A stretch of 60,567 bases of DNA. Origin: an uncultured virus (IMG/VR IMGVR_UViG_3300043772_002095) (lineage: Duplodnaviria; Heunggongvirae; Uroviricota; Caudoviricetes). How positions within the stretch are numbered: the first letter of the stretch is position 1; every line of letters begins with the position of its first letter. The stretch lies in the IMG/VR virus record IMGVR_UViG_3300043772_002095; one strand, given 5' to 3'. Position numbers and translations under genes: made by a program. The notes under the pieces are model-generated. The model was given only the letters and a program-made list of their open reading frames with translations, searched no databases and was not told the origin of the DNA. This document shows positions 6,590 through 60,567 of this stretch, one piece after another.

Positions 6590-7196
6590 AATAGAGTTAA
6601 AAAACTTTAAAGAAGTTTATGATTATTGTTATCTTAATCAGATAATTGATATGAATTCGTTTGTTAATAAATGTTTTAAACAAGGGTTTGACATTCAAAA
6701 ATACGGAATGTTGGGTGGAGAAACACCACCCCAAGTCAAACCTGAAGTCGTAGAAAAGATTGTTGAGGTTGAGAAAATAGTTGAAGTCCCTGTTGATAGA
6801 ATTGTTGAAACGATTAAAGAAGTTGAAGTGATAAAATATGTTGATAAAGAAGTAATTAAGGAAGTTCCTGTTGAAAAAATTGTCTCAAAAATAGAATATA
6901 TTTACGACAAAACTGAACCTCAAATCATAGAGAAAGAAGTAATTAAAGAAGTTGAGAAAATAGTTGAAGTTCCTGTAGAAAAAGAGGTTATTAAGGAAAT
7001 AATAAAAGAAGTTCCTAGTAATGATTCAGATGAAAAAATAAAAATGTTGCAAAATACTTTGTTGAATCAGAAAAAAGAACTAACTTTGAAAACTCAAAAG
7101 ATTAGTGAACTTGAAGAAAAAATAAAACAATTAGAAAATTTAACAATAAACCAAGGGGCTGTATATATGAGAAGCTCCAATTTATATAAAGATTAA
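6561..7196 (+). CDS. Coiled-coil protein with VEK/VIKE repeats
   Basis: Repeated EVEKIVEVP / KEVIKEV units. Confidence 0.7.
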   Translation: MEQKNSQTFKIELKNFKEVYDYCYLNQIIDMNSFVNKCFKQGFDIQKYGMLGGETPPQVKPEVVEKIVEVEKIVEVPVDRIVETIKEVEVIKYVDKEVIKEVPVEKIVSKIEYIYDKTEPQIIEKEVIKEVEKIVEVPVEKEVIKEIIKEVPSNDSDEKIKMLQNTLLNQKKELTLKTQKISELEEKIKQLENLTINQGAVYMRSSNLYKD

Positions 7197-7201
7197 ACAA
7201 T

Positions 7202-7558
7202 ATGATAACAAAATTAATAGTTTGGTTCATTTTAAGTTACGGACTTATGAACATAATGGTATTTGGAAGTATATTCCAAGGATTTAGGGATTTTTTTAAC
7301 AGATGGGGGTCTAATTCATTCGCATCATTCCAAGGAGTTGGGATTTTTATATCGGGAATATTAAGTTGTCCTATGTGTTTTTCCACTTGGAGCGGTTTTG
7401 TGTTAAGTTTATTGATTTATTCTCCCACACATAATTTATTTTTACTACCTTTGTGGTGTTCTTGGTTTTTTGATGGTATTTTATCATCTGGAGCGGTATG
7501 GGCGATAAATTCGATAATTGAGTGGTTTGAAGAAAATAGACCAAATAATAACAACTAA
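7202..7558 (+). CDS. Membrane protein, DUF1360-like
   Basis: Hydrophobic segments around 'LSCPMCFSTW'. Confidence 0.55.
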   Translation: MITKLIVWFILSYGLMNIMVFGSIFQGFRDFFNRWGSNSFASFQGVGIFISGILSCPMCFSTWSGFVLSLLIYSPTHNLFLLPLWCSWFFDGILSSGAVWAINSIIEWFEENRPNNNN

Positions 7559-18784: not shown

Positions 18785-18961
18785 ATGGAAACACTAGAAA
18801 AAATCAAAACCTTAACAGAAGAATTATCTGTTGATGCTACAAAATTTTTTAATGGTAATAAAAGTGCTGGAACTAGAGCAAGAAAAACTTGCCAAGATTT
18901 AAAAGACTTATTACAAGGACTTAGAAAAGAAATTTTGGAACATAGAAAAACCGAAAAATAA
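18785..18961 (+). CDS. Histone H1-like protein Hc1 family (not in ORF track)
   Basis: 58 aa METLEKIKTLTEELSVDATKFFNGNKSAGTRARKTCQDLK...; GNKxAGTRARK is the Hc1 hallmark. TTGACA-17-TATATT upstream at 18723-18751. Confidence 0.8.
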   Translation: METLEKIKTLTEELSVDATKFFNGNKSAGTRARKTCQDLKDLLQGLRKEILEHRKTEK

Positions 18962-21724: not shown

Positions 21725-21889
21725 ATGAAAAAATCAGGAAGACCTAAAAAAGATGAAAAAGATAAAAAGGTTAAATATGGTATTAGTATTGACCGATATC
21801 TTTTCGATAAAATGAAAAATGAGGATATTAGCGTGTCCAAGTTTGTTCAGAATTTAGTGAAAGAGTATTATGAGAAAGTACAAAGTTAA
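21725..21889 (+). CDS. Small ribbon-helix-helix-like DNA-binding protein (not in ORF track)
   Basis: 54 aa MKKSGRPKKDEKDKKVKYGISIDRYLFDKM...SVSKFVQNLVKEYY; ATATTTAT at 21712-21719. Confidence 0.65.
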   Translation: MKKSGRPKKDEKDKKVKYGISIDRYLFDKMKNEDISVSKFVQNLVKEYYEKVQS

Positions 21890-22643
21890 TGAAAATTATT
21901 TTGATATATTAAATGAAGAGTCATCATATTGGTTAGGGTTTCTATACGCTGATGGGTATGTTAGAATGAAAGATGGTAAAAGCGGTGAATTAAAGTTGAA
22001 ATTAAAAAATACAGATGTTGATCATATTAAAAAACTACTAAAACATATGGAAAGTGACCACCCTATTAAATGTGGGTTAGACAATAAATCTTATTTTTGT
22101 CAAACATCAATAAATTCAAGTAAAGTTGTTAAACGACTTTTTGAGTTGGGATGTGTTAATAATAAGACTTTTAAAATAACTTTACCCGATTTACCATCAA
22201 ATTTAATAACTCACTTTATAAGAGGATATTTTGATGGTGATGGGTCTATCTCAAAGAGGAAAGACTCTGCCGGGTATAACGGAACTATTGTTGGTAATTA
22301 TAATTTTATATCGGGTGTTTACGAATTTTTAAAAATACAAGGTCTAACTAACATTGGATTTTATAAAATGGGTAAAATATATAGTATAACCATTGGTAAT
22401 TTAAGTGATTTATTTAAATTTAAGGAATTGTTATATAACAATAACGATAAAATTCTATGTTTAGAAAGAAAAAAACTAATATTTGACGGAATGATCAAAG
22501 ATTTTGTGAGTAAAGATGAGTTTTTAAAGTTGATTGTTGAAAAAAATATAACTACATTTAATCAATATAAAAGTTATTTATCGTTTAACAAACTCGATAA
22601 ATACCCTAGAAATCCGGAATCGGAATATAATTTTAAATTTTAA
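21870..22643 (+). CDS. Free-standing LAGLIDADG homing endonuclease
   Basis: Two motifs: 'YWLGFLYADG' and 'FIRGYFDGDG'. Confidence 0.88.
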   Translation: MRKYKVNENYFDILNEESSYWLGFLYADGYVRMKDGKSGELKLKLKNTDVDHIKKLLKHMESDHPIKCGLDNKSYFCQTSINSSKVVKRLFELGCVNNKTFKITLPDLPSNLITHFIRGYFDGDGSISKRKDSAGYNGTIVGNYNFISGVYEFLKIQGLTNIGFYKMGKIYSITIGNLSDLFKFKELLYNNNDKILCLERKKLIFDGMIKDFVSKDEFLKLIVEKNITTFNQYKSYLSFNKLDKYPRNPESEYNFKF

Positions 22644-39499: not shown

Positions 39500-39551
39500 A
39501 TTTTGTGGATTAAAAAAAGTTTTATATCTTTGTATTCTAAAATTAAGAGAT

Positions 39552-39980
39552 ATGGCAACAAGGTCTAGAATTGGAATTGAAAATGAGGATGGAAGTGTAA
39601 GTTCTGTTTATTGTCATTGGGATGGTTATCCTAATAATAATGGGGTTATATTGGAAAGACACTATAAAAACAGGGATAAAGTTAAAAAATTAATTGAATT
39701 GGGTTCGTTATCTTCTTTGGCACCATTGGTTGAACCAACAAAAGAAGCTCATTCTTTTAACTGCCCTGAAGAAGATGTTGTCATAGCCTATCATAGAGAC
39801 AGGGGAGATTCTTATGATAAACCTGATATTGATAGTAGTAAAGAATCTTATTTTTCAGGGGATATTCAAGAGTATGGGTATTTATTTACAAAAGAGGGTA
39901 AATGGGTTGTCTGTGACGCTTATAGAAACAAAGAAATTACCGATTGTTCAAAATATCTTATGAAAAATTTGGTGGGTTAA
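39552..39980 (+). CDS. Conserved phage hypothetical protein (YCHWDGYP motif)
   Basis: 'MATRSRIG...SVYCHWDGYP', 'AYHRDRG', 'EYGYLF'. Confidence 0.75.
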   Translation: MATRSRIGIENEDGSVSSVYCHWDGYPNNNGVILERHYKNRDKVKKLIELGSLSSLAPLVEPTKEAHSFNCPEEDVVIAYHRDRGDSYDKPDIDSSKESYFSGDIQEYGYLFTKEGKWVVCDAYRNKEITDCSKYLMKNLVG

Positions 39981-40003
39981 AATAAATTTTGTATCTTCGT
40001 ATT

Positions 40004-40204
40004 ATGAAAAACAAGATAAAACCTTTCGAAGTAATTGAGGGAAACCTTAGAGCAGTAAAAGATACAAGTGATTTTGGTGGGATGAATAAGTGGCACTTAC
40101 ACATCAAAACCACCAATGGTGATTGGGACGATATTCAATGGATGAGCCGTTATAGTATACAAAAATTATTTACAACAAAATTACCCGAATACGAAGAAAA
40201 ATAA
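40004..40204 (+). CDS. Small hypothetical protein, paralog of 42637-42840
   Basis: ATG 4 nt after the -7 box; near-identical to the second copy. Confidence 0.75.
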   Translation: MKNKIKPFEVIEGNLRAVKDTSDFGGMNKWHLHIKTTNGDWDDIQWMSRYSIQKLFTTKLPEYEEK

Positions 40205-40256
40205 ATTTGGTAGATTAAAGTAAATTTTGTATCTTTGTATTATAAAAATAAAACAT

Positions 40257-40457
40257 ATGAGTTACGAGATAAATGTTAGTAAGAATGGTAGACACGTATT
40301 TGCAACACACGAAAAGTCTATTAATACATTGAGGGAAGCCACCGATATCATATTAAGATTAGATAAGGCTTTCCCTCAGAGTGAGGGATATTTCATTACC
40401 GTCTCAAGAAAGGTTGTGAGTTATGTTCCGGTTCCTGATAAAGATTTGGTAATGTAA
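40257..40457 (+). CDS. Small hypothetical protein (start revised)
   Basis: First ATG after promoter 40230. Confidence 0.7.
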   Translation: MSYEINVSKNGRHVFATHEKSINTLREATDIILRLDKAFPQSEGYFITVSRKVVSYVPVPDKDLVM

Positions 40458-40488
40458 AATAAAATTCTTATATAAAGAACAATATATT

Positions 40489-40562
40489 GGTTCCGTAACT
40501 CAACAGCATAGAGTATCGTCCTTCTAAGACGAGAGTTACAGGTTGGAATCCTGTCGGGACCA
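40489..40562 (+). tRNA. tRNA-Arg(TCT)
   Basis: Acceptor GGTTCCG/CGGGACC; anticodon arm TCGTC-CTTCTAA-GACGA; T arm ACAGG-TTGGAAT-CCTGT. No full CCA encoded. Confidence 0.88.
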
Positions 40563-40576
40563 CAAATAAAAATGAT

Positions 40577-40750
40577 ATGGAAAATAAACTTATAAAAATG
40601 TTTGACACGATAATCCTACTTGGAATTGTTGGGTTATTAATTATGGGGATGTATGGTTTGATTACAGAACAATATGTTATCACGTATGTCTCCTTTGTGA
40701 TGATGATGGTTTCAATTACTAAAGTTGTGTTAGACCCTTATAAAGATTAA
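40577..40750 (+). CDS. 57-aa membrane peptide (not in ORF track)
   Basis: MENKLIKMFDTIILLGIVGLLIMGMYG...; fills the gap between the tRNA and the next gene. Confidence 0.6.
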   Translation: MENKLIKMFDTIILLGIVGLLIMGMYGLITEQYVITYVSFVMMMVSITKVVLDPYKD

Positions 40751-40751
40751 T

Positions 40752-40949
40752 ATGACAAATAAAGATATAATAGAACACTTTGTATTTTGTGAAACACAAA
40801 GTAATTCACATAGTGAAGAATACTTGGAAGCAATCTCCTCAGAAGAATATTTGGAAGACCTTGTTGATACAATATCATTATGGGTTAGAGAATGTGAAGG
40901 GGATAGAAATAAATCGATGATGTACTTAATTCAAACTTTAGACGCTTAA
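40752..40949 (+). CDS. Small hypothetical protein
   Basis: 65-aa ORF. Confidence 0.65.
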   Translation: MTNKDIIEHFVFCETQSNSHSEEYLEAISSEEYLEDLVDTISLWVRECEGDRNKSMMYLIQTLDA

Positions 40950-40957
40950 AATAAATT

Positions 40958-41176
40958 ATGAAACTACTAGACTATTCAATCAGGGAAACATTTAACATAA
41001 TTGTATGTTATTTCTTAACCCTCCTTTTAATTAAATCATTTAACAATGGTGAGTACATTTGTTTGTTATATGCTTTTGTCGTATCAATCGAGATCGACTC
41101 AATGACAACAAGGTTTAATAAGTTTAAATTATACTATCCTGACTTTAAAAACGATTGGGTTAATATGATTGATTAA
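40958..41176 (+). CDS. Small membrane protein
   Basis: 72 aa, hydrophobic. Confidence 0.55.
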   Translation: MKLLDYSIRETFNIIVCYFLTLLLIKSFNNGEYICLLYAFVVSIEIDSMTTRFNKFKLYYPDFKNDWVNMID

Positions 41177-41300
41177 GGTTTGTTTATTTTTATTCAAATT
41201 TCAATACTAATAGTATAGTTTTGGGGGTAATTTTAAACAAAATAAATTTGGTGGATTAAAGTAAATTTTGTATATTTGTAAAACAATTAAAACAACAACA

Positions 41301-41594
41301 ATGACACAGAAAAAATTTACAGAATCGGAATTAGAAGAACAAAACTCAAAAATAATGTCAACCTTTAATTTTGAGAAGGTTCATCAACATATGGTAGAAA
41401 CCAACCACCAATGGTATATGGGTAGTTCAGCGGGTATGAAAGTTCCTGATATTCAAGACCTAAGAAATACCGCAAGGAGTTTACTGACACGAGCTGCGTA
41501 TAGTAATGAAGTTATTAATGTTGGTACAGGTGGGTTTATGGCTTACAAATTACCTTGGGGAATGAGTCTAACATTTCAATTGGCTTGGAGTTAA
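41301..41594 (+). CDS. Hypothetical protein (start revised)
   Basis: First ATG after promoter 41271. Confidence 0.7.
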   Translation: MTQKKFTESELEEQNSKIMSTFNFEKVHQHMVETNHQWYMGSSAGMKVPDIQDLRNTARSLLTRAAYSNEVINVGTGGFMAYKLPWGMSLTFQLAWS

Positions 41595-41657
41595 TTAAAA
41601 ATAAATTTGGCAGATTAAAGTAAATTTTGTATCTTTGTATTAATAAAAAATTAAACT

Positions 41658-41852
41658 ATGGAAGACAAATCAAATAACAATTTACAATATCAAGCTGAAC
41701 AAGTGGCAACAGAAGACATCGATGGAATGAGTGATGATGAGGTTGCCGATTATCTTGGGATTGAACTGGATGAAGTTAACTATCAATATCGAAACGATGC
41801 TATAGATAAAAGGATTGAGGAGTTATTGGAGATGTGGAAAGAAGTTGAATAA
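41658..41852 (+). CDS. Small acidic protein
   Basis: 64 aa after promoter 41630. Confidence 0.7.
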   Translation: MEDKSNNNLQYQAEQVATEDIDGMSDDEVADYLGIELDEVNYQYRNDAIDKRIEELLEMWKEVE

Positions 41853-41891
41853 AATTTTGGCAGATTAAAGTAAATTTTGTATCTTTGTATT

Positions 41892-42218
41892 ATGAGAACT
41901 AAAAAAACAACCACAACAAGTAAAATTAAAGTCATACACGAATCTAAAATAGTTAATCGTGATGTAGGAAGATTGTCAAGATTTTTTGAACTTAACGGTA
42001 GAAAATTCAAGTTAATCTATGACTTGAGAAACGGAGTTAGTAATGTTGATGTATATGTTATGGATTCTAACGGTGAATTTAAGTTTGTTCTGAACAAATA
42101 TGATATTGGTCATACACATAGCGTAAGTTATGTGGGGTATGAGAAGGATAAGGAAAGGGATATTCTAAATGCGGTTAAATTAGTTGATGAGGTTGTTTCT
42201 AAAATTTATCAGGATTAA
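41892..42218 (+). CDS. Hypothetical protein (start revised)
   Basis: ATG 4 nt after the -7 box at 41880. Confidence 0.7.
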   Translation: MRTKKTTTTSKIKVIHESKIVNRDVGRLSRFFELNGRKFKLIYDLRNGVSNVDVYVMDSNGEFKFVLNKYDIGHTHSVSYVGYEKDKERDILNAVKLVDEVVSKIYQD

Positions 42219-42244
42219 GAAATAATTAGTATCTTTGTGTTAGA

Positions 42245-42347
42245 GAATTAAGTAGTGAATAGTCCGATGTTCTAGACATCAAAGCCGAAACGGTTATGGT
42301 ACCTGAGACGGGTTTACATTGTGGGTTCGAGTCCCATCTTAGTTCCA
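42245..42347 (+). ncRNA. tRNA-like RNA with non-canonical body
   Basis: GAATTAAG/CTTAGTTC terminal stem ending in CCA; T arm GTGGG-TTCGAGT-CCCAT; three internal hairpins; no D arm; own promoter at 42230. Confidence 0.65.
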
Positions 42348-42364
42348 ATTAAAAAATAAAAGTT

Positions 42365-42613
42365 ATGAGTAAAATAATTTTAGAATTTGATAGTGAAACA
42401 GAATTTGAATCAGCTTCAGCCGCGTTAAATGGTTGGAAGTGGAGACACGTTGTGGATGAATTAGATAATAAACTTAGAGCTACCACAAAGTATGGAAATA
42501 GTGTAATAACTGAAGGACAAGAAGCGTCAGAAATGGAGTATCAGATTGCTGAGAAATATAGGGAGATGTTAAGAGACATTGTATATGAAAATGGTTTAAG
42601 TTTGGATTATTGA
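42365..42613 (+). CDS. Hypothetical protein
   Basis: 82-aa ORF. Confidence 0.7.
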   Translation: MSKIILEFDSETEFESASAALNGWKWRHVVDELDNKLRATTKYGNSVITEGQEASEMEYQIAEKYREMLRDIVYENGLSLDY

Positions 42614-42636
42614 AATAAATTTTGTATCTTCGTATT

Positions 42637-42840
42637 ATGAAAAATAAGATAAAACCTTTCGAAGTAATTGAGGGAAACCTTAGAGCGGTAAAAGATATGA
42701 GTGATTTTGGTGGGATGAATATGTTGCACTTATACATCAAAACCACCAACGGTTATTGGAGTGATAGTATTCAATGGATGAGTCGGTATAGAATACAAGA
42801 GTTATTTACAACAAAATTACCCAAATACGAAGAAAATTAA
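42637..42840 (+). CDS. Small hypothetical protein, paralog of 40004-40204
   Basis: MKNKIKPFEVIEGNLRAVKD...; same TATCTTCG promoter variant as the first copy. Confidence 0.75.
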   Translation: MKNKIKPFEVIEGNLRAVKDMSDFGGMNMLHLYIKTTNGYWSDSIQWMSRYRIQELFTTKLPKYEEN

Positions 42841-42877
42841 ATTTGACGAATTGAAATAATTTTTATATCTTTGTATT

Positions 42878-43327
42878 ATGAAAAAAATAATCTTATCACT
42901 ATCATTGTTGGGTTTATTAACCCTATCAAGTTGTTCAGAAAACTATTCAAATGGAGAACGAATCGGAGTAATAACACAATTCTCAGAGACAGGTTTAATT
43001 TGGAAAAGTTGGGAGGGACATTTAAACGTAACTCAAACAGGTATGAATAGTTCAATACCATTTGACTTCTCAATAGACAACGATAACCCAAATCAAGAGG
43101 TTATCAACAAATTGGATTCCGCAGCACAACACGGATGGAAAGTTAAATTGGTATATCATCAAACAAAAGGGTGGAACTGGTTTTCAAACAGAGGTCTTAC
43201 AAATCACTTTATAACAAAAGTTGAGGTATTGGAAAAAAACTTTGGTAATGTTTTTAATAACCAAGAACCGAAAGTGACAGGTAGAGTTATTGACACTATT
43301 TACGTTGTAATTGACAGAACAAAATAA
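42878..43327 (+). CDS. Lipoprotein
   Basis: Signal peptide with lipobox LSSC; 'YSNGERIG', 'GLIWKSWEG'. Confidence 0.75.
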   Translation: MKKIILSLSLLGLLTLSSCSENYSNGERIGVITQFSETGLIWKSWEGHLNVTQTGMNSSIPFDFSIDNDNPNQEVINKLDSAAQHGWKVKLVYHQTKGWNWFSNRGLTNHFITKVEVLEKNFGNVFNNQEPKVTGRVIDTIYVVIDRTK

Positions 43328-43364
43328 ATTTGGTGGATTAGAAAATAATTAGTATCTTTGTGTT

Positions 43365-43571
43365 ATGAAAATAATGATTAATATACCCGATGGAGTTTTA
43401 AATAGAATGAAAGAACTCGAAATTACTGACGAAAATATCCAAGAAGAGATGATAATTGAGTTTATTAATGACGCATTAGACTCCCACTACTTCAACGGAA
43501 TGTCTGAAAAATTCATAAAATGGACGTTTAAAAAAGATAATATTGAGTATTTTTTAGAAAAGTCAAAATAA
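43365..43571 (+). CDS. Small hypothetical protein
   Basis: ATG 4 nt after the -7 box. Confidence 0.7.
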   Translation: MKIMINIPDGVLNRMKELEITDENIQEEMIIEFINDALDSHYFNGMSEKFIKWTFKKDNIEYFLEKSK

Positions 43572-43929
43572 ATTTGGCAGATTAAAGTAAATTTTGTATC
43601 TTTGTATTATAAATAAAAACAATAACAATATGAGTAAACTAACGAAAAAAGAAAAACTAATATATTCGACAATTGATTCGGCAATAAATACAATTCCCCA
43701 AGAAGGTTATAGTGACGTATATGATTGGATGAATGTGGTGTTCAGTCAAGTTGAAAATGAACTTGAAGGTATTATCGATGAAGATACTTTTGATGATTTA
43801 AGAAGTGACTATGATGAATACGTTATGAGTAGTTGGGTTCAAGAAGATGAAGAATAAATTTGGCAGATTAAAATAAATTTTGTATCTTTGTATTATAAAT
43901 AAAAACAATAACAATATGAGTAAACTAAC
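43567..43929 (+). repeat. 77-bp direct repeat (promoter + leader + first codons)
   Basis: 43567-43643 and 43853-43929 differ at one position. Confidence 0.9.
43630..43857 (+). CDS. Small acidic protein (start revised, MSKLT)
   Basis: First ATG after promoter 43597. Confidence 0.7.
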   Translation: MSKLTKKEKLIYSTIDSAINTIPQEGYSDVYDWMNVVFSQVENELEGIIDEDTFDDLRSDYDEYVMSSWVQEDEE

Positions 43930-44248
43930 ACAAGAAACAATCAACAAAATTAAAGAAACAACATTACGTATTGAAGCATCATATAGAGGTGGTGGAGTTG
44001 AAATCGACCTAACTCAATGGGGTTACCCTGGTGAAAAAATGACTGCCTACCAAAATTATTTAGGTGGAGGAATGTTAGGTAGAATCAACAATGATTGTAC
44101 GATTAGAGGTTGGAGAAACGACCCAAAACTAATTGAAATTGCGGATAGTTTGTCAAGGTATTTTCATAACGTAACAAATCACGAAGACGATGAGTGGGAA
44201 AGTGCAACATTTGAAGAAAATCAATTAAGATCTAGTAGTAGTTATTAG
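43916..44248 (+). CDS. Hypothetical protein (start revised, MSKLT)
   Basis: First ATG after promoter 43883. Confidence 0.7.
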   Translation: MSKLTQETINKIKETTLRIEASYRGGGVEIDLTQWGYPGEKMTAYQNYLGGGMLGRINNDCTIRGWRNDPKLIEIADSLSRYFHNVTNHEDDEWESATFEENQLRSSSSY

Positions 44249-44266
44249 TGGTTATTACCACTTAAT

Positions 44267-44354
44267 AGTCAGGTGGCGGAATTGGTTAGACGTAATCAAT
44301 AGGAAAGCGACCAGCAACAACTGGTTTACATAGGTTCGAATCCTGTCCTGACTA
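44267..44354 (+). ncRNA. Class II (Leu-like) tRNA scaffold lacking a pairable anticodon arm
   Basis: Acceptor AGTCAGG/CCTGACT; D region TGGCGGAATTGGTTAGACG; hairpin ACCAG-CAACAA-CTGGT; T arm ATAGG-TTCGAAT-CCTGT. Confidence 0.7.
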
Positions 44355-44401
44355 CAAAAAATAAATTTGGTAAATTGAAATAAAGTTCTTATCTTTGTAT
44401 T

Positions 44402-44929
44402 ATGGAAAAATTAATAAACATACTACGAACCGAAACAACAACATTAAAAGAACAATTTATCGAAATGACTCAAAAATGGTCTGAAAAAAAATATGAGGAT
44501 CTGGTTAAAAAAAGTAAGTGGAGTGAAATCGATTGGTGTAAGTATTTTGGTTTAGAACCTGAATTAAAAAACAAACATTTACCAACAAGTAGTTTTTATT
44601 CTTTTCCAACAGGTTTTTATAATACAAAAGAATATGTTACCTATAAAAGAATTAAGGATGAGATTAGAAAGACTTTTAATATGGGTAAAGATAAGTTCAT
44701 TCAAAAAGAAATTAAAAAGGCTGAAGACCATTATGAGAGTTCTCTAATTAAACTTGCTCACAGAATCGAAGTTAAAAAATTGAATATTGATAATATGTCC
44801 GTTGTAACAGGACACGTTGGTGTTAATATCGAGATGACTTTAAGTGATGGTGAAAAAAGTGTTAGAGCGTTCACCATAATAGCGGAAGGAGAAATTCAAA
44901 GACCGCATTACAGATATCTAGTTAAATGA
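44402..44929 (+). CDS. Conserved phage hypothetical protein
   Basis: C-terminal 'TIIAEGEIQRPHYRYLVK'; leaderless-type start. Confidence 0.75.
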   Translation: MEKLINILRTETTTLKEQFIEMTQKWSEKKYEDLVKKSKWSEIDWCKYFGLEPELKNKHLPTSSFYSFPTGFYNTKEYVTYKRIKDEIRKTFNMGKDKFIQKEIKKAEDHYESSLIKLAHRIEVKKLNIDNMSVVTGHVGVNIEMTLSDGEKSVRAFTIIAEGEIQRPHYRYLVK

Positions 44930-44935
44930 AAAAAT

Positions 44936-45115
44936 ATGACAAAACTAATTTTAAAATCGACATTAGCAACAATAGGAACATTATTTCTACTTTATGGGTA
45001 TTTTCAATTGTGTCTGAAATACCCTATAACTATTTTAATAATTTTAGGAGTATTCCTTATAATATTAATTTTTCACGGGTTTTTCAAATTATTTAAAGGT
45101 AAAAATTTAAAATAA
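44936..45115 (+). CDS. 59-aa membrane peptide (not in ORF track)
   Basis: MTKLILKSTLATIGTLFLLYG...; two hydrophobic segments. Confidence 0.55.
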   Translation: MTKLILKSTLATIGTLFLLYGYFQLCLKYPITILIILGVFLIILIFHGFFKLFKGKNLK

Positions 45116-45152
45116 ATTTGGCGGATTAAACTAAATTTTGTATCTTTGTATT

Positions 45153-45392
45153 ATGAAAACAATAGGTAAAATATTATTCTTTGGAACATTTATTTTCTTC
45201 TTCTACCTTGTTGGTAGTACGGTTGTTAACTCAATAATGAGTTTATTTCCGGTTTCAGCATCTGAATGGTTTCCTTTGATTAGATTATTATTGTGGTTAT
45301 TTACATTCACAATAAATCTTTTTATTACTATCCTATTATATTTTGTATTTATCTATATAATTTCGGCTATCGCCAGTTTATTAGATCAATAG
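45153..45392 (+). CDS. Small membrane protein (start revised)
   Basis: ATG 4 nt after the -7 box at 45141. Confidence 0.7.
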   Translation: MKTIGKILFFGTFIFFFYLVGSTVVNSIMSLFPVSASEWFPLIRLLLWLFTFTINLFITILLYFVFIYIISAIASLLDQ

Positions 45393-45395
45393 AAT

Positions 45396-45710
45396 ATGAA
45401 AGATGAAAAAATAAAAATAGTTTGCCAAAATGTGATTGATTCAGAATTGGATTCAATCGTTAAAGAATCCGAAGAATGGGGTTTGGGTGAAATGGAGGAG
45501 TTAAGAATTATTAACTCAATAGATAAAATCGTGGTTGATAGAGTCACATCTCAAACAAGAGTAACGATATATGTTGACATATATTCTAACTCAAAAGAAG
45601 AAGATGAAATTGAATATGACGATTTTATGTCAGAATTAAGATATAGAATCGAGACAAAATGGATACCAAATTCGTTCATTCAATTAGAAAGTATTTTTTT
45701 TGTAGATTAA
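45396..45710 (+). CDS. Hypothetical protein
   Basis: 104-aa acidic ORF. Confidence 0.7.
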   Translation: MKDEKIKIVCQNVIDSELDSIVKESEEWGLGEMEELRIINSIDKIVVDRVTSQTRVTIYVDIYSNSKEEDEIEYDDFMSELRYRIETKWIPNSFIQLESIFFVD

Positions 45711-45733
45711 AAAAAATTTATTATCTTTGTATT

Positions 45734-45934
45734 ATGAAAATAAAATTTGTTGCAGATATTACCGATGAGAAAACTAACAAGTATTTAAAAACAATTTGGG
45801 AACATAGCACTTCAAATTCTCGTAAGAAACTTTTAAATGAGATGGGACATTCTGAGAAGTATTCTGATATGGACTATAATGACCTTACAGGAGAAATTCA
45901 AAGTAAAATAGTTATGATATCTAAAATGGTTTAA
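45734..45934 (+). CDS. Small hypothetical protein (start revised)
   Basis: ATG 4 nt after the -7 box at 45722. Confidence 0.65.
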   Translation: MKIKFVADITDEKTNKYLKTIWEHSTSNSRKKLLNEMGHSEKYSDMDYNDLTGEIQSKIVMISKMV

Positions 45935-45936
45935 AA

Positions 45937-46323
45937 ATGAAAGTATTTCTTGACGATTTAAGAACAATTGATATGGTTTATCCCGAATTTGATTCAAATG
46001 AGTGGGTAATTGTTCGTGACTTTCATCAGTTTGTTAATTATATTAACAAATACGGAATACCCGAATTTATTAGTTTTGACCACGATTTGGGTTTTGAACA
46101 TACAAGGTTCTTCTTTAATAATGGAGGACACGAAAATCCCCCAGATCCTATTAATGGAGATTTCAAAGAAAAGACCGGGTATGACGCGGCTAAATGGTTA
46201 GTGGAATATTGTATGGACAATAATGTGAAATTACCAAAATTTTCGGTACATTCCGCTAACCCAACAGGGGCAAAAAACATTAGAGAATATTTAAAAAACG
46301 CTGAAAAGTATATAAGTAAATGA
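45937..46323 (+). CDS. Cyclic-phosphate-processing receiver-like domain protein
   Basis: 'VFLDDLR', 'ISFDHDLG', 'TGYDAAKWL', 'VHSANPTG'. Confidence 0.8.
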   Translation: MKVFLDDLRTIDMVYPEFDSNEWVIVRDFHQFVNYINKYGIPEFISFDHDLGFEHTRFFFNNGGHENPPDPINGDFKEKTGYDAAKWLVEYCMDNNVKLPKFSVHSANPTGAKNIREYLKNAEKYISK

Positions 46324-46811
46324 GAACGTTAGATTTTTTAAAGACATTTAATTCACCATTTAAAAGACCAAAACTTAAATGGTATTTTGGAAAAACTGCG
46401 GTAGGAACACCATTCTTCTACCCGAGAAGATGGGTTAAAGACCCTCAAAATCCTAGATATCAGAAACCTGTACCAAAAAGAATTGGGTTCGATTTTGTTG
46501 GGTTGGGGTGGAAAACAAAATGGACTGAAACTGATTACAGATTTGAGTGGTCTCCAGTTTTTTCATTCGTGTTCTTTGGTTATCAAATCGCTGTAACTTT
46601 TGAACCACCTGAGTATCATCATTATTGGGAGGCTTGGTTATACTATGAAAAGAGTACAAGTAAACTTTTATCAAAAGAAGATAGAATTAAAAAATGTATT
46701 AAGGAATTTCCGTTGATTTATAAAGTAACATCCAAAGGCGAAACAAAAACCATTAATTATTACGAATTAATTTTAAAAGAAAAATACTCAAAATTTATAT
46801 ATGAATCCTGA
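46320..46811 (+). CDS. Trp/Phe-rich hypothetical protein
   Basis: 163-aa ORF. Confidence 0.7.
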   Translation: MRTLDFLKTFNSPFKRPKLKWYFGKTAVGTPFFYPRRWVKDPQNPRYQKPVPKRIGFDFVGLGWKTKWTETDYRFEWSPVFSFVFFGYQIAVTFEPPEYHHYWEAWLYYEKSTSKLLSKEDRIKKCIKEFPLIYKVTSKGETKTINYYELILKEKYSKFIYES

Positions 46812-46980
46812 AGAAAAAAAGAAAGATGAGTTGTTGTTAAAACACGAATCTCTTAGAATGGAAATGATAGAAATGTTGGTTAAAAATTATACAAATGACC
46901 AAGATTTAGGTAGAGAAGTTAGAAGATTTGTAACAATCAAAGAACGAATTAATAAACAAGAAGATGGACAAGGTAGTTGA
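46801..46980 (+). CDS. 59-aa hypothetical protein (not in ORF track)
   Basis: MNPEEKKKDE...NYTNDQDLGREVR...; fills the gap and overlaps both neighbours. Confidence 0.55.
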   Translation: MNPEEKKKDELLLKHESLRMEMIEMLVKNYTNDQDLGREVRRFVTIKERINKQEDGQGS

Positions 46981-47725
46981 TTTAAAAAATATATATTCAT
47001 TAAAAGACTTCATTAATTGTGGTTATGTTAGGGATAAGATTTCAGAATTTTATCAAAAAAAAACCTATTCATCAAAACTTAATGAATATAAACCTGGTTC
47101 TGAGAAATGGTTGAAAGTAAAAGAAAGGGATGAAGAAATATCAAAAATCCCAGACCATAATGTTAAAGACAATTATGAAGACCTTATAATTGAGTATGGA
47201 CATAAAAAAGTGGAATTTTCGATAGGAACAATAACTATTAAAAGAAGTGGTTATTGTTCTGAAACCGATGAATTTGAGGAAAAGGATGTTACACTTAACT
47301 TTTTAGTTGAGAATAGTTATTGGGGATATGGTTTAATATGTACTTTTGATGAATTAATTCTTCATAACAAAATTCAATCACTATTTGAAGAAATGTTAGA
47401 TGACCAAAGAAGGGGAGGGTGGAGAAAAAGATTAGAATCAATTAAAGATGGTGCTTTTATGTTGTTATTGGATAAAATTGTTAAATCTGAAAAAAATCTA
47501 ATTAAGTGTGATATTTGGAGTTCATACAATAGGGATGATATGTGGTGTCAAATAGGTGAAGAAAAGTATCATCTTAAAGATATGTTGGTTATTAACAAAG
47601 CTTATGACAATAATGACTACGAATTCTACGATGAAAATGATAGAAGAATAAAATATGTGTGGTATACCGATGAAAGTTTCCCCGACTTCTATTTAAAACA
47701 TTCAAAAATAAATTTGGCAAATTGA
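46964..47725 (+). CDS. Hypothetical protein
   Basis: 253-aa ORF. Confidence 0.7.
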   Translation: MDKVVDLKNIYSLKDFINCGYVRDKISEFYQKKTYSSKLNEYKPGSEKWLKVKERDEEISKIPDHNVKDNYEDLIIEYGHKKVEFSIGTITIKRSGYCSETDEFEEKDVTLNFLVENSYWGYGLICTFDELILHNKIQSLFEEMLDDQRRGGWRKRLESIKDGAFMLLLDKIVKSEKNLIKCDIWSSYNRDDMWCQIGEEKYHLKDMLVINKAYDNNDYEFYDENDRRIKYVWYTDESFPDFYLKHSKINLAN

Positions 47726-47748
47726 AATAATTTTCGTATCTTTGTATT

Positions 47749-48039
47749 ATGAAAAACAAAATAATGAACATAGTAAATTACACAATTAAAATTGAACACG
47801 AAAATTTTGGGGTTATCTTAAATGAAACTTTTGTGGATAAAACTCAGTTTAAGTTATTCTTAAAAATGATTCACGGATGTTTAGAATTAAAAAACGATTT
47901 GGTATTTTTTAATGGTGAGGATTTTTTGGTTAATATACCACATAAACATTTATCGCAATCAATAGTGATAACCACACTACAACCGTATGATTTTGCTGAC
48001 CACGTTAAAAGTAAAATCGAGGCGTTGGTGACAAAGTAA
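47749..48039 (+). CDS. Hypothetical protein
   Basis: ATG 4 nt after the -7 box at 47737. Confidence 0.7.
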   Translation: MKNKIMNIVNYTIKIEHENFGVILNETFVDKTQFKLFLKMIHGCLELKNDLVFFNGEDFLVNIPHKHLSQSIVITTLQPYDFADHVKSKIEALVTK

Positions 48040-56818: not shown

Positions 56819-57205
56819 TTAATTATTATTTAAATAATCCAAAATGAAATCCAAATTTGAAGAAATTGACTTGCCTCTTAAATCCATAATTTGTTTATAT
56901 GAGAAAAAATCAAATTCAGAATGTTCTTCAGATAATTTAATATCGTTAGAATCAATATCGTCCTTCAAATAAAAAACATTAAGTTCTTTTTTACCTTTCA
57001 TATATTTTTTTAAAAAATGATAATTTTTGGATTTTATGTTAATACCCAATTCTTCTTTTATTTCTCTAACCAAACCTTGTTTTGGAGTTTCACCCGTGGT
57101 TAAGTGACCACCTGGCAAACCCCATTTACCGTCATCAGTTTTTTTAAGTAATAAAAACTTATTTTTTCTATCGAGAATTAATAATGAAACTACATTAATA
57201 TCCAT
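56819..57205 (-). CDS. NUDIX hydrolase
   Basis: Nudix box 'GGHLTTGETPKQGLVREIKEELG'; 'LSEEH'. Confidence 0.9.
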   Translation of the reverse strand: MDINVVSLLILDRKNKFLLLKKTDDGKWGLPGGHLTTGETPKQGLVREIKEELGINIKSKNYHFLKKYMKGKKELNVFYLKDDIDSNDIKLSEEHSEFDFFSYKQIMDLRGKSISSNLDFILDYLNNN

Positions 57206-57238
57206 AAATTGTTTTTGTTTTAGAATATTTCATAATCA

Positions 57239-57250
57239 ATAAATATTTAT
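57239..57250. promoter_or_regulatory. Palindromic double ATATTTAT motif between divergent genes
   Basis: ATAAATATTTAT supplies one motif copy per strand. Confidence 0.55.
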
Positions 57251-57255
57251 CATTA

Positions 57256-57645
57256 ATGAATTTAAGACAAACTATAAAGAAAATAATAAAAGAAGAAATA
57301 ACTAATAGGAGTCGTAAAATAGAAATGATTCAACACGTAGTTGATGAAGCTATCGATACTTTAAAATATATGTGTGAAAATCTTAATACTGAAGATGATG
57401 AATATGTTAGTTATAGTACTTGTGAGTTAGTAGATTCAGGTTTAAATGTTGAAGTTACTGACGTTAAAAAACATAACGAAAGTTTTATAATTGTTGTTGT
57501 AATTAAATATAATAATTATAGTTTTATCGATACGGATTTTTTACTTATTGAGCTTAGAAATGAGGTTAAAAAATTTGTACCTGTGATAAAAATAGAATCG
57601 GAAGATAGTATAAATACATTCCCTGAAGAAAAAAGACAATGGTAA
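57256..57645 (+). CDS. Hypothetical protein
   Basis: N-terminal 'LRQTIKKIIKEE'. Confidence 0.7.
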   Translation: MNLRQTIKKIIKEEITNRSRKIEMIQHVVDEAIDTLKYMCENLNTEDDEYVSYSTCELVDSGLNVEVTDVKKHNESFIIVVVIKYNNYSFIDTDFLLIELRNEVKKFVPVIKIESEDSINTFPEEKRQW

Positions 57646-57646
57646 T

Positions 57647-58060
57647 ATGAAATTAGACGGACACGAATTAAGAATGTTTAATTTAATATTAAACAAAGTA
57701 CTTAAACAACAATACGATTGGTTTGTCAGAATTGATGTTAGTTCCGCAGGGTTTAATGGTCATTATATAACTATGGAAGGTGAAATATTTGTTTATGAAG
57801 ACTGGGGTTATAAACAATGGAAAGAATATCATTATGGTGATCCACCTGACTTTGAAAATGGGGAAGATTTCGGTGATATTATCGGAGGTCTATTAGCGGA
57901 AGAATTAAGAGAAATATTTATTGATACTTTCAAAAGTATATACGGTTTTGTTAACACAATGTATTTAACTTTTTCAGGTATGAATGTTCGATTAGTAGAA
58001 GAAGAACAAATAGATGAAAGTGTTAATTTAATTAAAAAATTGACTAAGATATTAAAGTAG
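57647..58060 (+). CDS. Hypothetical protein
   Basis: 137-aa ORF. Confidence 0.7.
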   Translation: MKLDGHELRMFNLILNKVLKQQYDWFVRIDVSSAGFNGHYITMEGEIFVYEDWGYKQWKEYHYGDPPDFENGEDFGDIIGGLLAEELREIFIDTFKSIYGFVNTMYLTFSGMNVRLVEEEQIDESVNLIKKLTKILK

Positions 58061-58063
58061 AGT

Positions 58064-58657
58064 TTAAAACCCTAAAACATCTTTTCTATTTACGGTATCA
58101 ACAATATCTAAATAGAAGTCTTCAAGTTCTCTTTCACCCGACTCAATCATTTTAATAACTTCATTTTTCCTATATAATGTATTGTTAACGATAAAATCAA
58201 TCATTTCATCATCAGTAATTCCTTCGGGTTTTACAGGCTCGGGAATACATTGATGAATTCTATCAAGAGTACCAATTTCACTAATAAATAAACCCGATTC
58301 ACCAATAAGTTGTTCAAATTTCGGAACCATAATATCATCATACCACTCTTCAATAGAAGTAAGGACATATGATTTTCTAACACTAAATATTGATGATATT
58401 GTTTTAACCAATTCTTCATCAATAAAGACCATACCTTCATATATTTCATTATTTTCAAAGTAGTAAATGGCTGAAATTTCTTCCCTACCATTAATACACC
58501 AATCCTCACGAAGATTACCATAATTACGAGATTTTTTACCTATTTTTCTTTTACCGGTTGATATATAGTCATTTAGGTATTTGTATATCGAATTTTGTAT
58601 ATTAATAGAACTTTTTGCAAATTTCCTATATTGTGTTTCCGTAACAATAAATTTCAT
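58064..58657 (-). CDS. Hypothetical protein
   Basis: N-terminal 'MKFIVTETQY'; ATATTTAT motif upstream (58662-58669). Confidence 0.7.
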   Translation of the reverse strand: MKFIVTETQYRKFAKSSINIQNSIYKYLNDYISTGKRKIGKKSRNYGNLREDWCINGREEISAIYYFENNEIYEGMVFIDEELVKTISSIFSVRKSYVLTSIEEWYDDIMVPKFEQLIGESGLFISEIGTLDRIHQCIPEPVKPEGITDDEMIDFIVNNTLYRKNEVIKMIESGERELEDFYLDIVDTVNRKDVLGF

Positions 58658-58712
58658 ATTAATAAATATACATTTTTTTGGTTATTTGAGAATAATTTTG
58701 TATCTTTGTATT

Positions 58713-59390
58713 ATGAAAATTTGGCACATATCTGACACTCACACCTTTCACGGGTTATTAACAATACCTGAAAATATTGATATGGTCATCCATAGTGGAG
58801 ACGCGACCAACCCAAGAGAACCCTTTCCAAACAAGATTGAGATGGAAAACTTTATCGAGTGGTATAAATCTTTACCTATAAAGTATAAGATTTTTGTTTC
58901 GGGAAATCACGACACATCAATAGAAAGAAAATATATCACAAAAGATAATTTTAAGGATAATGGAATTATTTACTTGGAGAATGAGTCCGTTGAGATTGAA
59001 GGAATTAAGATATGGGGTTCTCCGATAACACCAACATTTGGTATAGGTTGGGCATTCAATAAAAACAGAATGAAAACCCACGAAGTTTGGAAACAGATTC
59101 CAAACGATACTGATATTGTTATCACTCACGGACCACCAAGTACAATCTTAGATTTATCTTATAATAGAGAAAACGAATTGGAGTTTTGTGGTGACACATC
59201 TTTAAGAAAACGTATCTTTGAGATTAAACCAAAGTTATCTTTATTCGGACACATACACAATTGTGAGGACATTATAAACTCTGGTGTTAGAAAGATACCA
59301 AATATCGATACAATATTCAGTAATGGTAGTGTGGTAACAGATGGTAAGTTTGGTAAATTATGTAGTGATGGAAATGTTTTTGATATATAA
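58713..59390 (+). CDS. Calcineurin-like metallophosphoesterase (start revised, MKIWH)
   Basis: 'ISDTH', 'HSGD', 'GNHD', 'THGPP', 'FGHIH'; ATG 4 nt after the -7 box at 58701. Confidence 0.88.
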   Translation: MKIWHISDTHTFHGLLTIPENIDMVIHSGDATNPREPFPNKIEMENFIEWYKSLPIKYKIFVSGNHDTSIERKYITKDNFKDNGIIYLENESVEIEGIKIWGSPITPTFGIGWAFNKNRMKTHEVWKQIPNDTDIVITHGPPSTILDLSYNRENELEFCGDTSLRKRIFEIKPKLSLFGHIHNCEDIINSGVRKIPNIDTIFSNGSVVTDGKFGKLCSDGNVFDI

Positions 59391-59448
59391 AGATTATAAA
59401 TGAAATTTTAAAAACGAAATGAACAAAGACTTATTTGTTATTGATATT

Positions 59449-59528
59449 GGTATATATGAAGTACCTAACGACAAAACTTAAAAATTAGTACAAACCTTAT
59501 GAGGTATTTCACATATACCTTGTTATAA
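59449..59528 (+). repeat. attC-like site 1 (long type, left TAAC end missing)
   Basis: GGTATATATGAAGTACCT (59449-59466) pairs 16/18 with AGGTATTTCACATATACC (59502-59519), then TT-GTTATAA. Confidence 0.6.
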
Positions 59529-59540
59529 AACGTTATTTAT

Positions 59541-59741
59541 ATGGAAATCAAATTTTATTGGAACGGAAGTTTTGCTGGAACTAATCACAGTATGACAATA
59601 AACGGAAAGAATATTAGATTAGGTGGTATTGTTTCAAATGAAAATGAAGCAAAACTGAAAGCAGTTGAGATATTGAAGCAAGATTATGGAATTGACTATA
59701 ATGTTGATGAAATAAAATTTGAGTGGGGTGGTCGTTTATAA
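59541..59741 (+). CDS. Cassette A hypothetical protein
   Basis: 66 aa; stop codon lies inside the cassette's right inverted repeat. Confidence 0.75.
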   Translation: MEIKFYWNGSFAGTNHSMTINGKNIRLGGIVSNENEAKLKAVEILKQDYGIDYNVDEIKFEWGGRL

Positions 59742-59745
59742 TGTT

Positions 59746-59799
59746 TTATAACGGCTGCAAATATATTGTCGTTTTAATGCAATATATTTGTTGTTAGCA
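59746..59799 (+). repeat. attC-like site 2
   Basis: TAAC-GGCTG-CAAATATATTG-TCGTTTTAATG-CAATATATTTG-TT-GTTA. Confidence 0.8.
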
Positions 59800-59816
59800 A
59801 TAGTTTATTTAATAAT

Positions 59817-60056
59817 GTAGATAGAATGCACAGTTGTGTTTTATCTTTGAAGATAACGGCAGGTGAGATGTATTATTCTCTGAAATAGGTTAGACTGCAC
59901 AGAACCGTAAATTCGGTTGTAGAGGTTGGTGATACCGTGACAAAAATCATCTATACTGCACACATACAGTATATCAGGATACGACAGAGGCTGAGAAGCG
60001 CATCTATGGGTGTAATAGCAGAGCCGACCTTGAGATATGTCGATACTGGTGCAGTG
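59817..60056 (+). ncRNA. Putative structured non-coding RNA carried as cassette B (strand and ends inferred)
   Basis: No long + strand ORF; visibly GC-richer than its surroundings; multiple stems including ACTGCAC/GTGCAGT and CAGTAT/ATACTG. Confidence 0.45.
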
Positions 60057-60071
60057 AATTTTTTTAATTAT

Positions 60072-60125
60072 TGCTAACGTCTGATGATAAACAATCGTTT
60101 TAATGTTGTTTATCATTTGTTATAT
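60072..60125 (+). repeat. attC-like site 3
   Basis: TAAC-GTCTG-ATGATAAACAA-TCGTTTTAATG-TTGTTTATCAT-TT-GTTA. Confidence 0.8.
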
Positions 60126-60148
60126 TTAGTATCAAAAATTTTATACAA

Positions 60149-60415
60149 ATGAAAAATATGAATTTACCAGAAAAGATTAAACTGAATGGTTATGGAGAAA
60201 TGATTGAATTTTCTTTGACCGACAAACGAGAAATAAAATACTACGGAAAAACAAAAACATCAAACGAAAGTTTATGGAGAACCGATAAATTAAAAGATAA
60301 TGAAGTATTTTATCAAACTGAATGGGGTTGGGGTGTTTTTGTTGATGTGGATAAAATGGAAACCATTTCTTATCATGGAACAGATTGGGGAGGTCAAAAA
60401 ATAATAAACTCATAA
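60149..60415 (+). CDS. Cassette C hypothetical protein
   Basis: 88 aa; stop codon inside the right inverted repeat. Confidence 0.75.
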   Translation: MKNMNLPEKIKLNGYGEMIEFSLTDKREIKYYGKTKTSNESLWRTDKLKDNEVFYQTEWGWGVFVDVDKMETISYHGTDWGGQKIINS

Positions 60416-60430
60416 AATTTTTGATATTGA

Positions 60431-60484
60431 ATATAACGTCTGATGATAAACAATCGTTTTAATGTTGTTTATCATTTGTTATAC
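60431..60484 (+). repeat. attC-like site 4
   Basis: 50 bp (60434-60483) identical to 60075-60124. Confidence 0.8.
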
Positions 60485-60538
60485 ACAGTATTTTGTGTGG
60501 TGGGTTGATATTAACAAAATAAATTAGTATTTTAGTAA

Positions 60539-60567
60539 ATGAAAATAGAAATACCTTTATATAATAT
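60539..60567 (+). CDS. Probable start of cassette D ORF (MKIEIPLYN..., truncated)
   Basis: First ATG after site 4; frame open to the window end. Confidence 0.4.

Follow-up and report, generated by a model that had tools for sequence, protein, structure and literature searches.

The question raised by this locus is whether the row of short units at the right end of a phage sequence, set apart from each other by hairpins, is an array of mobile gene cassettes comparable to that of an integron and, if so, which enzyme moves the cassettes. The window, which is the whole stretch of DNA analysed (60.6 kb), comes from a lake-water phage and has the array at its end. Pfam searches of its 103 ORFs recognise a primase, a sigma factor, an SbcC-like protein, DnaJ, three DNA methylases and a thioredoxin, and this content shows a large phage. 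We consider it quite likely that the stretch 59449-60567 belongs to an integron-like platform for gene cassettes carried by the phage, of which it would be the part distal to the recombinase. The features of the array and of the genes that precede it are listed below.

58697-58714, + strand: promoter-like phage motif TTTGTATCTTTGTATTAT, immediately 5′ of the phosphoesterase gene; putative promoter
58713-59390, + strand: calcineurin-like metallophosphoesterase gene, 225 aa (Pfam PF00149, E 4.5e-16)
59449-59525, + strand: site 1, long-class hairpin, the first junction of the array; right core TTGTTA, left core TAACGGTTG replaced
59522-59752, + strand: cassette unit A, GTTA...TAAC, 231 nt, with a 66-aa ORF at 59541-59741
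59749-59796, + strand: hairpin site 2, 48 nt, 74 bits with covariance model R1
59793-60078, + strand: cassette unit B, 286 nt, no convincing ORF
60075-60122, + strand: hairpin site 3, 48 nt, 72.6 bits with R1
60119-60437, + strand: cassette unit C, 319 nt, with an 88-aa ORF at 60149-60415
60434-60481, + strand: hairpin site 4, 48 nt, 72.6 bits with R1, same sequence as site 3
60478-60567, + strand: start of cassette unit D, cut off by the end of the window; ORF start at 60540

The hairpins belong to one family, the consensus of which opens with TAACG-NYY-G and closes with YTGTTA; the stem between these covaries, and the loop measures 9 to about 90 nt. The sequence shared by sites 3 and 4 is the commonest 48-mer of the family, with 60 copies when the loci and the window are counted together. 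Site 2 has the ends TAACG-N-CTG ... TTGTTA and the loop TCGTTTTAATG in common with these two sites, and its stem differs from theirs by compensatory changes that keep the pairing. In 11 variants all 18 pairs of the stem are 100% paired and 9 of the 13 inner pairs are changed on both sides, while pairing is 78% in shuffled controls and 33-61% in slid controls. Three G-T pairs in the core of the hairpin are invariant, and a 3-nt bulge is present on the 5′ arm only. The earlier note described four hairpin sites and suggested that a custom covariance model be run. The model R1, which was built from 11 hairpin variants, picks out sites 2, 3 and 4, the next-best match in the 60.6-kb window reaching 13.6 bits, and the same three sites rank top among all TAAC...GTTA stretches of the window in a fold scan. 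Their start-to-start spacings, 326 and 359 nt, are those given in that note for the units. Site 1 departs from the description, since it is of another class and its left core is replaced. It is not scored by R1; in a base-by-base comparison it is 90-92% identical to full long-class sites in three related loci (L037, L007 and L068), the long class being the longer (about 87 nt) members of the same family.

The family is found in many other viral contigs. A scan for its two conserved pieces gives 94 exact-pattern stretches in IMG/VR, and R1 gives 237 matches in 91 loci, often in rows at a spacing of about 200-800 nt. The sites are 48-125 nt long with the same ends throughout, and an identical 48-mer sits between quite different flanks in many contigs. 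Several of the IMG/VR contigs stop within an array. Among GenBank phages, megablast finds no match for 58000-60567, and blastn with a single hairpin finds one, in an uncultured 462-kb phage. In bacterial assemblies the pattern scan gives 101 stretches, against roughly 90 estimated by chance; once the model is applied as a filter, a hairpin of at least 40 bits remains in about 30 of the 80 loci retrieved, and an Xer-like gene lies near the hairpins in three of the bacterial loci. Canonical attC sites are imperfect palindromes with RYYYAAC/GTTRRRY cores and extrahelical bases, and they fold as single strands. The sites of this family have AAC/GTT cores, a covarying stem, a variable length, a one-sided 3-nt bulge and a strand-biased fold, and they may be akin to attC sites.

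The units between the hairpins are short, and their proteins are given no function by Pfam and PHROGs. Units A and C each hold one + strand ORF with a stop codon that falls within the right repeat, as the earlier note had it. The protein of unit A has no match in Pfam or PHROG, and the sole matches among cassette proteins are a weak one to a PHROG of unknown function and sub-threshold Pfam matches, all for proteins of unit D. In unit B, which has a G+C content of 38% compared with 28.5% across the window, the sole + strand ORF is 46 aa long with a GTG start; this unit folds as RNA with a z-score of -1.7, has no Rfam match and has no homologue among the fetched loci. The motif TTTGTATCTTTGTATTAT occurs 19 times in the window, every time on the + strand, where 0.06 copies are expected, and none of the 19 copies lies inside the array. 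The TATCTTTG within it fits the -7 pattern of Bacteroidota promoters, TAnnTTTG. The earlier note named a host-type promoter at 58701 as a possible source of transcription for the array; the motif found there is one of the 19 copies of this phage motif, and it may drive the array.

The two ends of each unit are complementary to each other, as expected of cassettes that are integrated from a circle. An inverted-repeat search finds 15 nt at 93% at the ends of unit A and 13 nt at 92% at the ends of unit B. In the first 12 nt past the GTTA/TAAC core, the ends of A, B and C match at 10, 9 and 10 positions, and those of C also at 18 of 20. When unit ends of related arrays are paired at random 20,000 times, such scores are reached with a probability of 0.008, 0.024 and 0.008, respectively, and of 0.00075 for C over 20 nt. 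The two flanks of the same site, in contrast, match at just 4, 4 and 7 of 12 positions in the window, so that the claim that unit ends match and site flanks do not is borne out. The same holds across related arrays, in which 231 full sites delimit 137 units, 103 of them distinct. The ends of the 102 units of at least 100 nt match at 7.3 of 12 positions on average, whereas the flanks of the same site (99 sites) match at 4.7 and random pairs (5000) at 4.64. When the circle junctions of the units in the window are rebuilt, they fold at -17 to -24 kcal/mol, compared with -10.7 to -11.5 kcal/mol for the junctions in their array form. A reading of the units as transposons with terminal inverted repeats or as MITEs was considered and rejected, since each unit has its own repeats, these abut a hairpin that is shared, and a transposase is absent.

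Related contigs carry different sets of cassettes in different orders. The metallophosphoesterase gene is the last conserved gene 5′ of the array. In the close relative L029, which is 95.4% and 96.9% identical to the window over 57000-59390 (96.9% in the phosphoesterase gene), the similarity ends at 59390, and four different units follow the stop codon of this gene. Unit A is 89% identical in L056, where the similarity runs exactly from GTTA to TAAC and the hairpins on both sides are different. The 5′ and 3′ end modules of unit C recur around other ORFs in six loci (L030, L036, L055, L059, L026 and L029). Positions 60426-60567 of the window, which include the start of unit D, are 100% identical to positions 575-716 of L080, and the unit is 99% identical in L066 and L079, where it lies behind another cassette; in all, it is found behind three different cassettes. 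With the distinct units numbered, the order is [17][18][19][20] in L066, [92][21][19][20] in L079 and [21][93][17][18] in L080. The comparison of cassette order that the earlier note proposed therefore gives no constant order, and the breakpoints lie exactly at GTTA/TAAC; its view of an array of shuffled cassettes agrees with these contexts. In L080, unit D is 916 nt long, has ORFs of 134, 90 and 49 aa and ends with ...AAAATATTGTGTATAAC, after which a hairpin follows. An end of about TACTGTGTATAAC followed by a hairpin had been predicted from the start of D, and the end found matches that start at 16 of 18 positions, one of the mismatches being a G-T pair. The window’s own cassette D is expected to end with ...TATTGTGTATAAC and a hairpin.

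The recombinase that such an array calls for is absent from the window, as the earlier note stated; neither Pfam searches of the 103 ORFs nor tblastn with the recombinase of the relatives (best E 1.5) finds one. The note placed the enzyme elsewhere, and it is indeed located just past the array in L029 and in most related loci. The contig of L029 encodes a 266-aa Xer/IntI-like tyrosine recombinase (P0001), which starts 147 nt past the last hairpin and about 1.1 kb 3′ of the stop codon of the phosphoesterase gene, and a PF00589 gene is present in all five of the array-bearing contigs searched. The nearest record, G001, has neither the array region nor the recombinase. The phage of the window presumably carries its own recombinase just past the window end. 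Around relatives of the recombinase, in 80 loci, all 114 hairpins are on the strand of the recombinase gene, and 113 of them are upstream of it and 1 downstream, the flanks searched amounting to 294 kb upstream and 365 kb downstream. Among loci with a recombinase identity of 70% or more and an upstream flank of 1 kb or longer, 34 of 37 have a hairpin; the corresponding figures are 8 of 24 at 50-70% identity and 0 of 6 below 50%.

The enzyme is Xer-like and lacks the insert that is specific to integron integrases. The best NCBIfam model for P0001 is the XerA-type NF040815, at 199 bits, although the cut-off of 220 is not reached; the integron-integrase models TIGR02249 and NF011946 give 169 bits (cut-off 265) and 110 bits (cut-off 435). 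Its best solved relative is the XerA-like 4a8e. The stretches GLRVSE, HQLRHSF, LGHS and EIYTH, which we take to carry the catalytic residues, are conserved relative to 4a8e, and all but the first can be aligned with IntI4 (2a3v) as well. The alignment with 2a3v consists of two stretches, 17-171 with 17-174 and 214-262 with 265-313. Since P0001 has 42 residues between these pieces where IntI4 has 90, about 48 fewer at the position of the IntI-specific insert, the insert is absent. This insert is reported to be essential for integron function in the part of PMC8138268 available to us, and its absence counts against the proposed platform.

A candidate counterpart of attI is located beside the recombinase gene. 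Of the 67 distinct regions upstream of the gene, 52 have TAAC followed by a sequence of the TATWWTATAT type (YA..TATAT) 49-59 nt 5′ of the start codon of the recombinase, and most of the remaining regions have close variants of this sequence. The left side of the junction is variable and cassette-like (X-TAAC), the right side is conserved, and there is no hairpin between them. Cassettes would be inserted at this docking site. In view of this asymmetry, the crossover is placed at TAAC, and a crossover on the TAAC side means that each hairpin would enter 5′ of its cassette. The earlier note had recognised the signature of integron cassettes with recombination at G^TT; the matching of the ends within a unit holds over the 102 units, while the crossover appears to be on the TAAC side and not at the G^TT of the right core. 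The cassette genes read toward the recombinase, and the longest ORF is on the top strand of the hairpin in 87 of 88 units. This strand folds better than the other at 35 of 44 short sites and 44 of 48 long sites. The non-Watson-Crick pairs in well-paired outer stems are 71 G-T and 3 A-C, and position 7 of the outer stem is a G-T pair in 61 of 102 units. Because the ORFs are on the top strand and G-T pairs prevail over A-C pairs, the folding strand would be the sense strand.

The hairpin cores themselves appear to assort nearly independently of both flanks, with a weak link to the downstream unit. The core is shared in 4 of 84 junction pairs that have the same left flank and different right flanks and in 43 of 330 pairs that have the same right flank and different left flanks, compared with a baseline of 982 of 19,424. 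Since the cores are nearly independent of the flanks and unit A is found with other hairpins on both sides, a single one-sided crossover cannot account for all of the observations. Three loci (L025, L051 and L061) have a chimeric hairpin with the arms of two variants, which points to recombination inside the loop. Taken together, the assortment of cores, the contexts of unit A and the chimeric hairpin suggest that two-sided crossovers, conversion of the core or homologous exchange must contribute.

In the platform proposed here, the mobile unit would be a short gene or non-coding stretch that begins with GTTA-X′ and ends with X-TAAC. Once the unit is a free circle, X and X′ would extend the core into one long hairpin, folded from a single strand, and the phage-encoded Xer/IntI-like tyrosine recombinase would join this hairpin to the docking site near its own gene. 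The crossover would take place at TAAC on the sense strand of the genes, and the circle, in the form X-TAAC-hairpin-GTTA-X′, would thus enter beside the recombinase gene with the hairpin on the 5′ side of the new unit. The role of the recombinase as the catalyst, like the circular intermediates, is deduced from the arrangement of sites and genes.

Stem-loops that punctuate the variable regions of phages have been described before. PeSLs are conserved intergenic stem-loops, each a composite of an early promoter and a terminator, that flank small novel ORFs in T4-type phages; they are reported to mark points of insertion, deletion and replacement and are thought to act by homologous recombination (PMC2839356, PMC4122927, in the parts of these papers available). 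The hairpins could accordingly belong to PeSL-like regulatory cassettes, in which they act as promoter/terminator or transcript-stabilising elements and the units are shuffled by homologous recombination between identical hairpins, with no dedicated recombinase. Identical 48-mers in many contigs would provide the substrate for such exchange, and the chimeric hairpin and the common orientation of hairpins and genes are in keeping with it. So is the motif TAnnTTTG. Within the opening 70 nt of the units it occurs in 20 of 88 cases, the other strand giving 3 of 88, and 14 of the 48 long loops contain it as well. Homologous exchange, however, gives no cause for complementary ends within a unit. Nor does it fit with a recombinase-side junction that lacks a hairpin and has TAAC alone in common, or with the polar linkage of the hairpins to a tyrosine recombinase. 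In addition, no intrinsic-terminator-like site is found in 58500-60567, and the promoter motif that is repeated elsewhere in the window is absent from the array. This account is therefore unlikely. A role in RNA would account for the G-T pairs and the bias toward the sense strand just as well as a role in DNA, and the hairpins could be RNA-level devices alone, such as processing sites or 5′-3′ closing stems that protect the mRNA, with a neighbouring recombinase that serves lysogeny, dimer resolution or another purpose. The pairs that are compatible with G-U on the sense strand, including the three invariant ones of the core and that at position 7, and the ORFs on the folding strand all agree with such a device. 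It leaves unexplained, however, both a turnover of cassettes with breakpoints exactly at GTTA/TAAC and a docking junction that is variable on the left and conserved on the right. For other roles that the enzyme might have, a single resolution or attachment site would be enough, but in 34 of 37 loci it comes with an array. Searches of the array against Rfam find nothing, either at the gathering threshold or with E up to 1. We regard an RNA role alone as quite unlikely.

The array could also be an ordinary CALIN, with canonical attC sites that come from a host integron and are recombined, if at all, by the IntI of the host. A CALIN has at least two attC sites and no integron integrase within the usual 4 kb. 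The window has 3-4 sites and no recombinase, but it ends inside cassette D, and L029 has the recombinase. The AAC/GTT cores and the variable length of the sites resemble attC. Clusters of attC sites and integrons are reported in virulent phages, including a phage of Polaribacter (Bacteroidota), and five of six phage attC sites tested recombined with IntI1 (PMC9892861, in the part available). The arrays described here are nevertheless tied to a phage-encoded recombinase that is not an IntI, their polarity is opposite to that of classical cassettes, and the hairpin is common to just one GenBank phage record, which together make a CALIN very improbable. It is hardly conceivable that the hairpins are static, as fossil repeats or terminators that no longer move. 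In four public lake-water runs, seen as short contigs, neither excision products nor circles are found. The contigs of these runs end at hairpins, the depth being 164-517 in hairpin bins and at most 64, mostly below 30, elsewhere, and the joints have short sides (21-38 nt) that are ambiguous as to excision. Against this stands L029, the flank of which is 95-97% identical and which carries an entirely different cassette set, together with the identical cassettes in different contexts.

On the sequence evidence, the array is a real integron-like cassette array that lies outside the integron family. The likeness to an integron extends to several features. The tyrosine recombinase gene adjoins a docking site, a counterpart of attI that is found in the relatives and not in the window itself. 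The cassettes mostly carry a single gene; the imperfect palindromes that join them fold, have AAC/GTT cores and vary in length; and the ends of each cassette regain full complementarity in the circle alone. The bottom strand of attC, which is the one that is recombined, carries 5′-..TAAC at its 5′ arm, and the folding strand of the present hairpins also has 5′-TAAC on the 5′ arm. The differences concern both the enzyme and the polarity. The recombinase falls below both NCBIfam cut-offs for integron integrases, and since it is Xer-like and has no IntI insert, the system is integron-like and not an integron. In an integron, the cassette genes are oriented as the attC top strand and a promoter at the integrase/attI end expresses them; here the folding strand carries the genes, which point to the recombinase, so that the other strand reads as a classical integron with its genes reversed, and the hairpin would enter 5′ of the gene. 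About a quarter of the cassettes bring a promoter-like motif, the extra bases form a 3-nt bulge on the 5′ arm, and the carrier is a large phage.

Each of the other known systems also differs from the platform. In CTX phage, XerCD, an Xer-type enzyme that has no IntI insert, recombines at dif the attP hairpin folded from one strand of the phage genome; there, a single site serves for integration of the whole phage by host enzymes, whereas here an array of cassettes is associated with a phage-encoded enzyme. PeSLs differ in that the present array has a linked tyrosine recombinase, a docking junction that shares only TAAC and complementarity between the ends of a unit. The phage clusters of PMC9892861 comprise 2-3 sites that canonical attC tools detected, and IntI1 was the enzyme used to test them; neither an Xer-type partner encoded by the phage nor a docking site nor a reversed polarity is described in the available part of that paper. 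A full-text search of the literature found no description of a phage Xer-type cassette platform. Since integron finders key on IntI and canonical attC sites, they would probably miss it.

It seems moderately likely that large Bacteroidota phages and some bacteria have an integron analogue of their own, in which an Xer-type enzyme that lacks the insert recognises hairpins of the sense strand and docks hairpin-plus-gene units beside its own gene. Such a system would drive the exchange of accessory genes between otherwise unrelated phages of lakes and seas, genes of unknown function, some of which would bring their own promoters. It would offer a definite mechanism behind the variable, small-ORF regions of large phages, and it would account for contigs that end at arrays, both those of the public runs, which break at hairpins, and those of IMG/VR, which stop inside. 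The recombinase and its site would form a compact pair that could be tested as a tool. Integrons are generally viewed as devices of bacteria that require the specific insert of IntI. If this reading is correct, the capture of cassettes through a single strand evolved, or persists, without the protein domain that was supposed to define it, and cassette capture would be a more general strategy than has been believed.

The hairpins that separate the cassette units exist in several sequence variants. A chimera of two of them, with its left arm from one variant (ATGATAAACAA) and its right arm from another (CAAATAAAACA), is found in three loci from other contigs:

L025 5001-5048, chimeric hairpin
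L051 4984-5031, chimeric hairpin
L061 5001-5048, chimeric hairpin

Because the arms come from two variants, stem pairing is lost in this hairpin, which scores 46.4 bits with the covariance model; its composition suggests that it is the product of an exchange within the conserved loop. A further class of sites, starting TAACG(G/A)T.CAGATATAT, is represented in L094 (3357-3060, - strand) and in L115, L129, L164 and L122. The loop in this class contains a promoter-like stretch together with the beginning of a gene (start codon and initial codons), whose reading frame crosses the right arm (ATATATCTGATGTTA) and continues in the unit.

Some units contain no ORF:

L094 ~2420-2310, - strand, unit without ORF
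L139 and L166, units without ORF immediately before the docking site that precedes the recombinase gene
Window 59793-60078, unit B, without ORF

These units have a higher G+C content and complementary ends, and are possible small-RNA cassettes; the fold z-score of window unit B is only -1.7.

In the close relative L029, an additional gene of 218 aa (6657-7313) separates the homologue of window 58064-58657 from that of the phosphoesterase gene; it has similar 'catattaata' start regions on its flanks and no hairpin. The window has no equivalent of this gene between 58654 and 58687.

The motif TTTGTATCTTTGTATTAT has 19 copies between 10170 and 58714 of the window, all on the + strand, against a chance expectation of 0.06, and probably represents a family of Bacteroidota-type phage promoters. 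Its copies are concentrated in 39521-47750, and most are directly followed by small ORFs. Other features of the window include:

18785-18958, histone H1-like Hc1 protein
21870-22640, LAGLIDADG endonuclease, encoded between DnaJ and a Dam-type methylase
44267-44354, second tRNA according to Rfam (37.1 bits), absent from the ARAGORN output
45937-46320, cyclic-phosphate-processing receiver (cREC_REC) domain protein

Related hairpins, scoring 43-60 bits, are also present in bacteria, both in isolates (Marivirga aurantiaca S37H4, L231; Putridiphycobacter roseus SM1701, L259; Aquimarina, L238) and in MAGs (L181, L216 and L242). In three of these loci there is also a gene for a recombinase relative, 33-42% identical; in two of the three it lies downstream on the strand of the hairpin, matching the phage arrangement.
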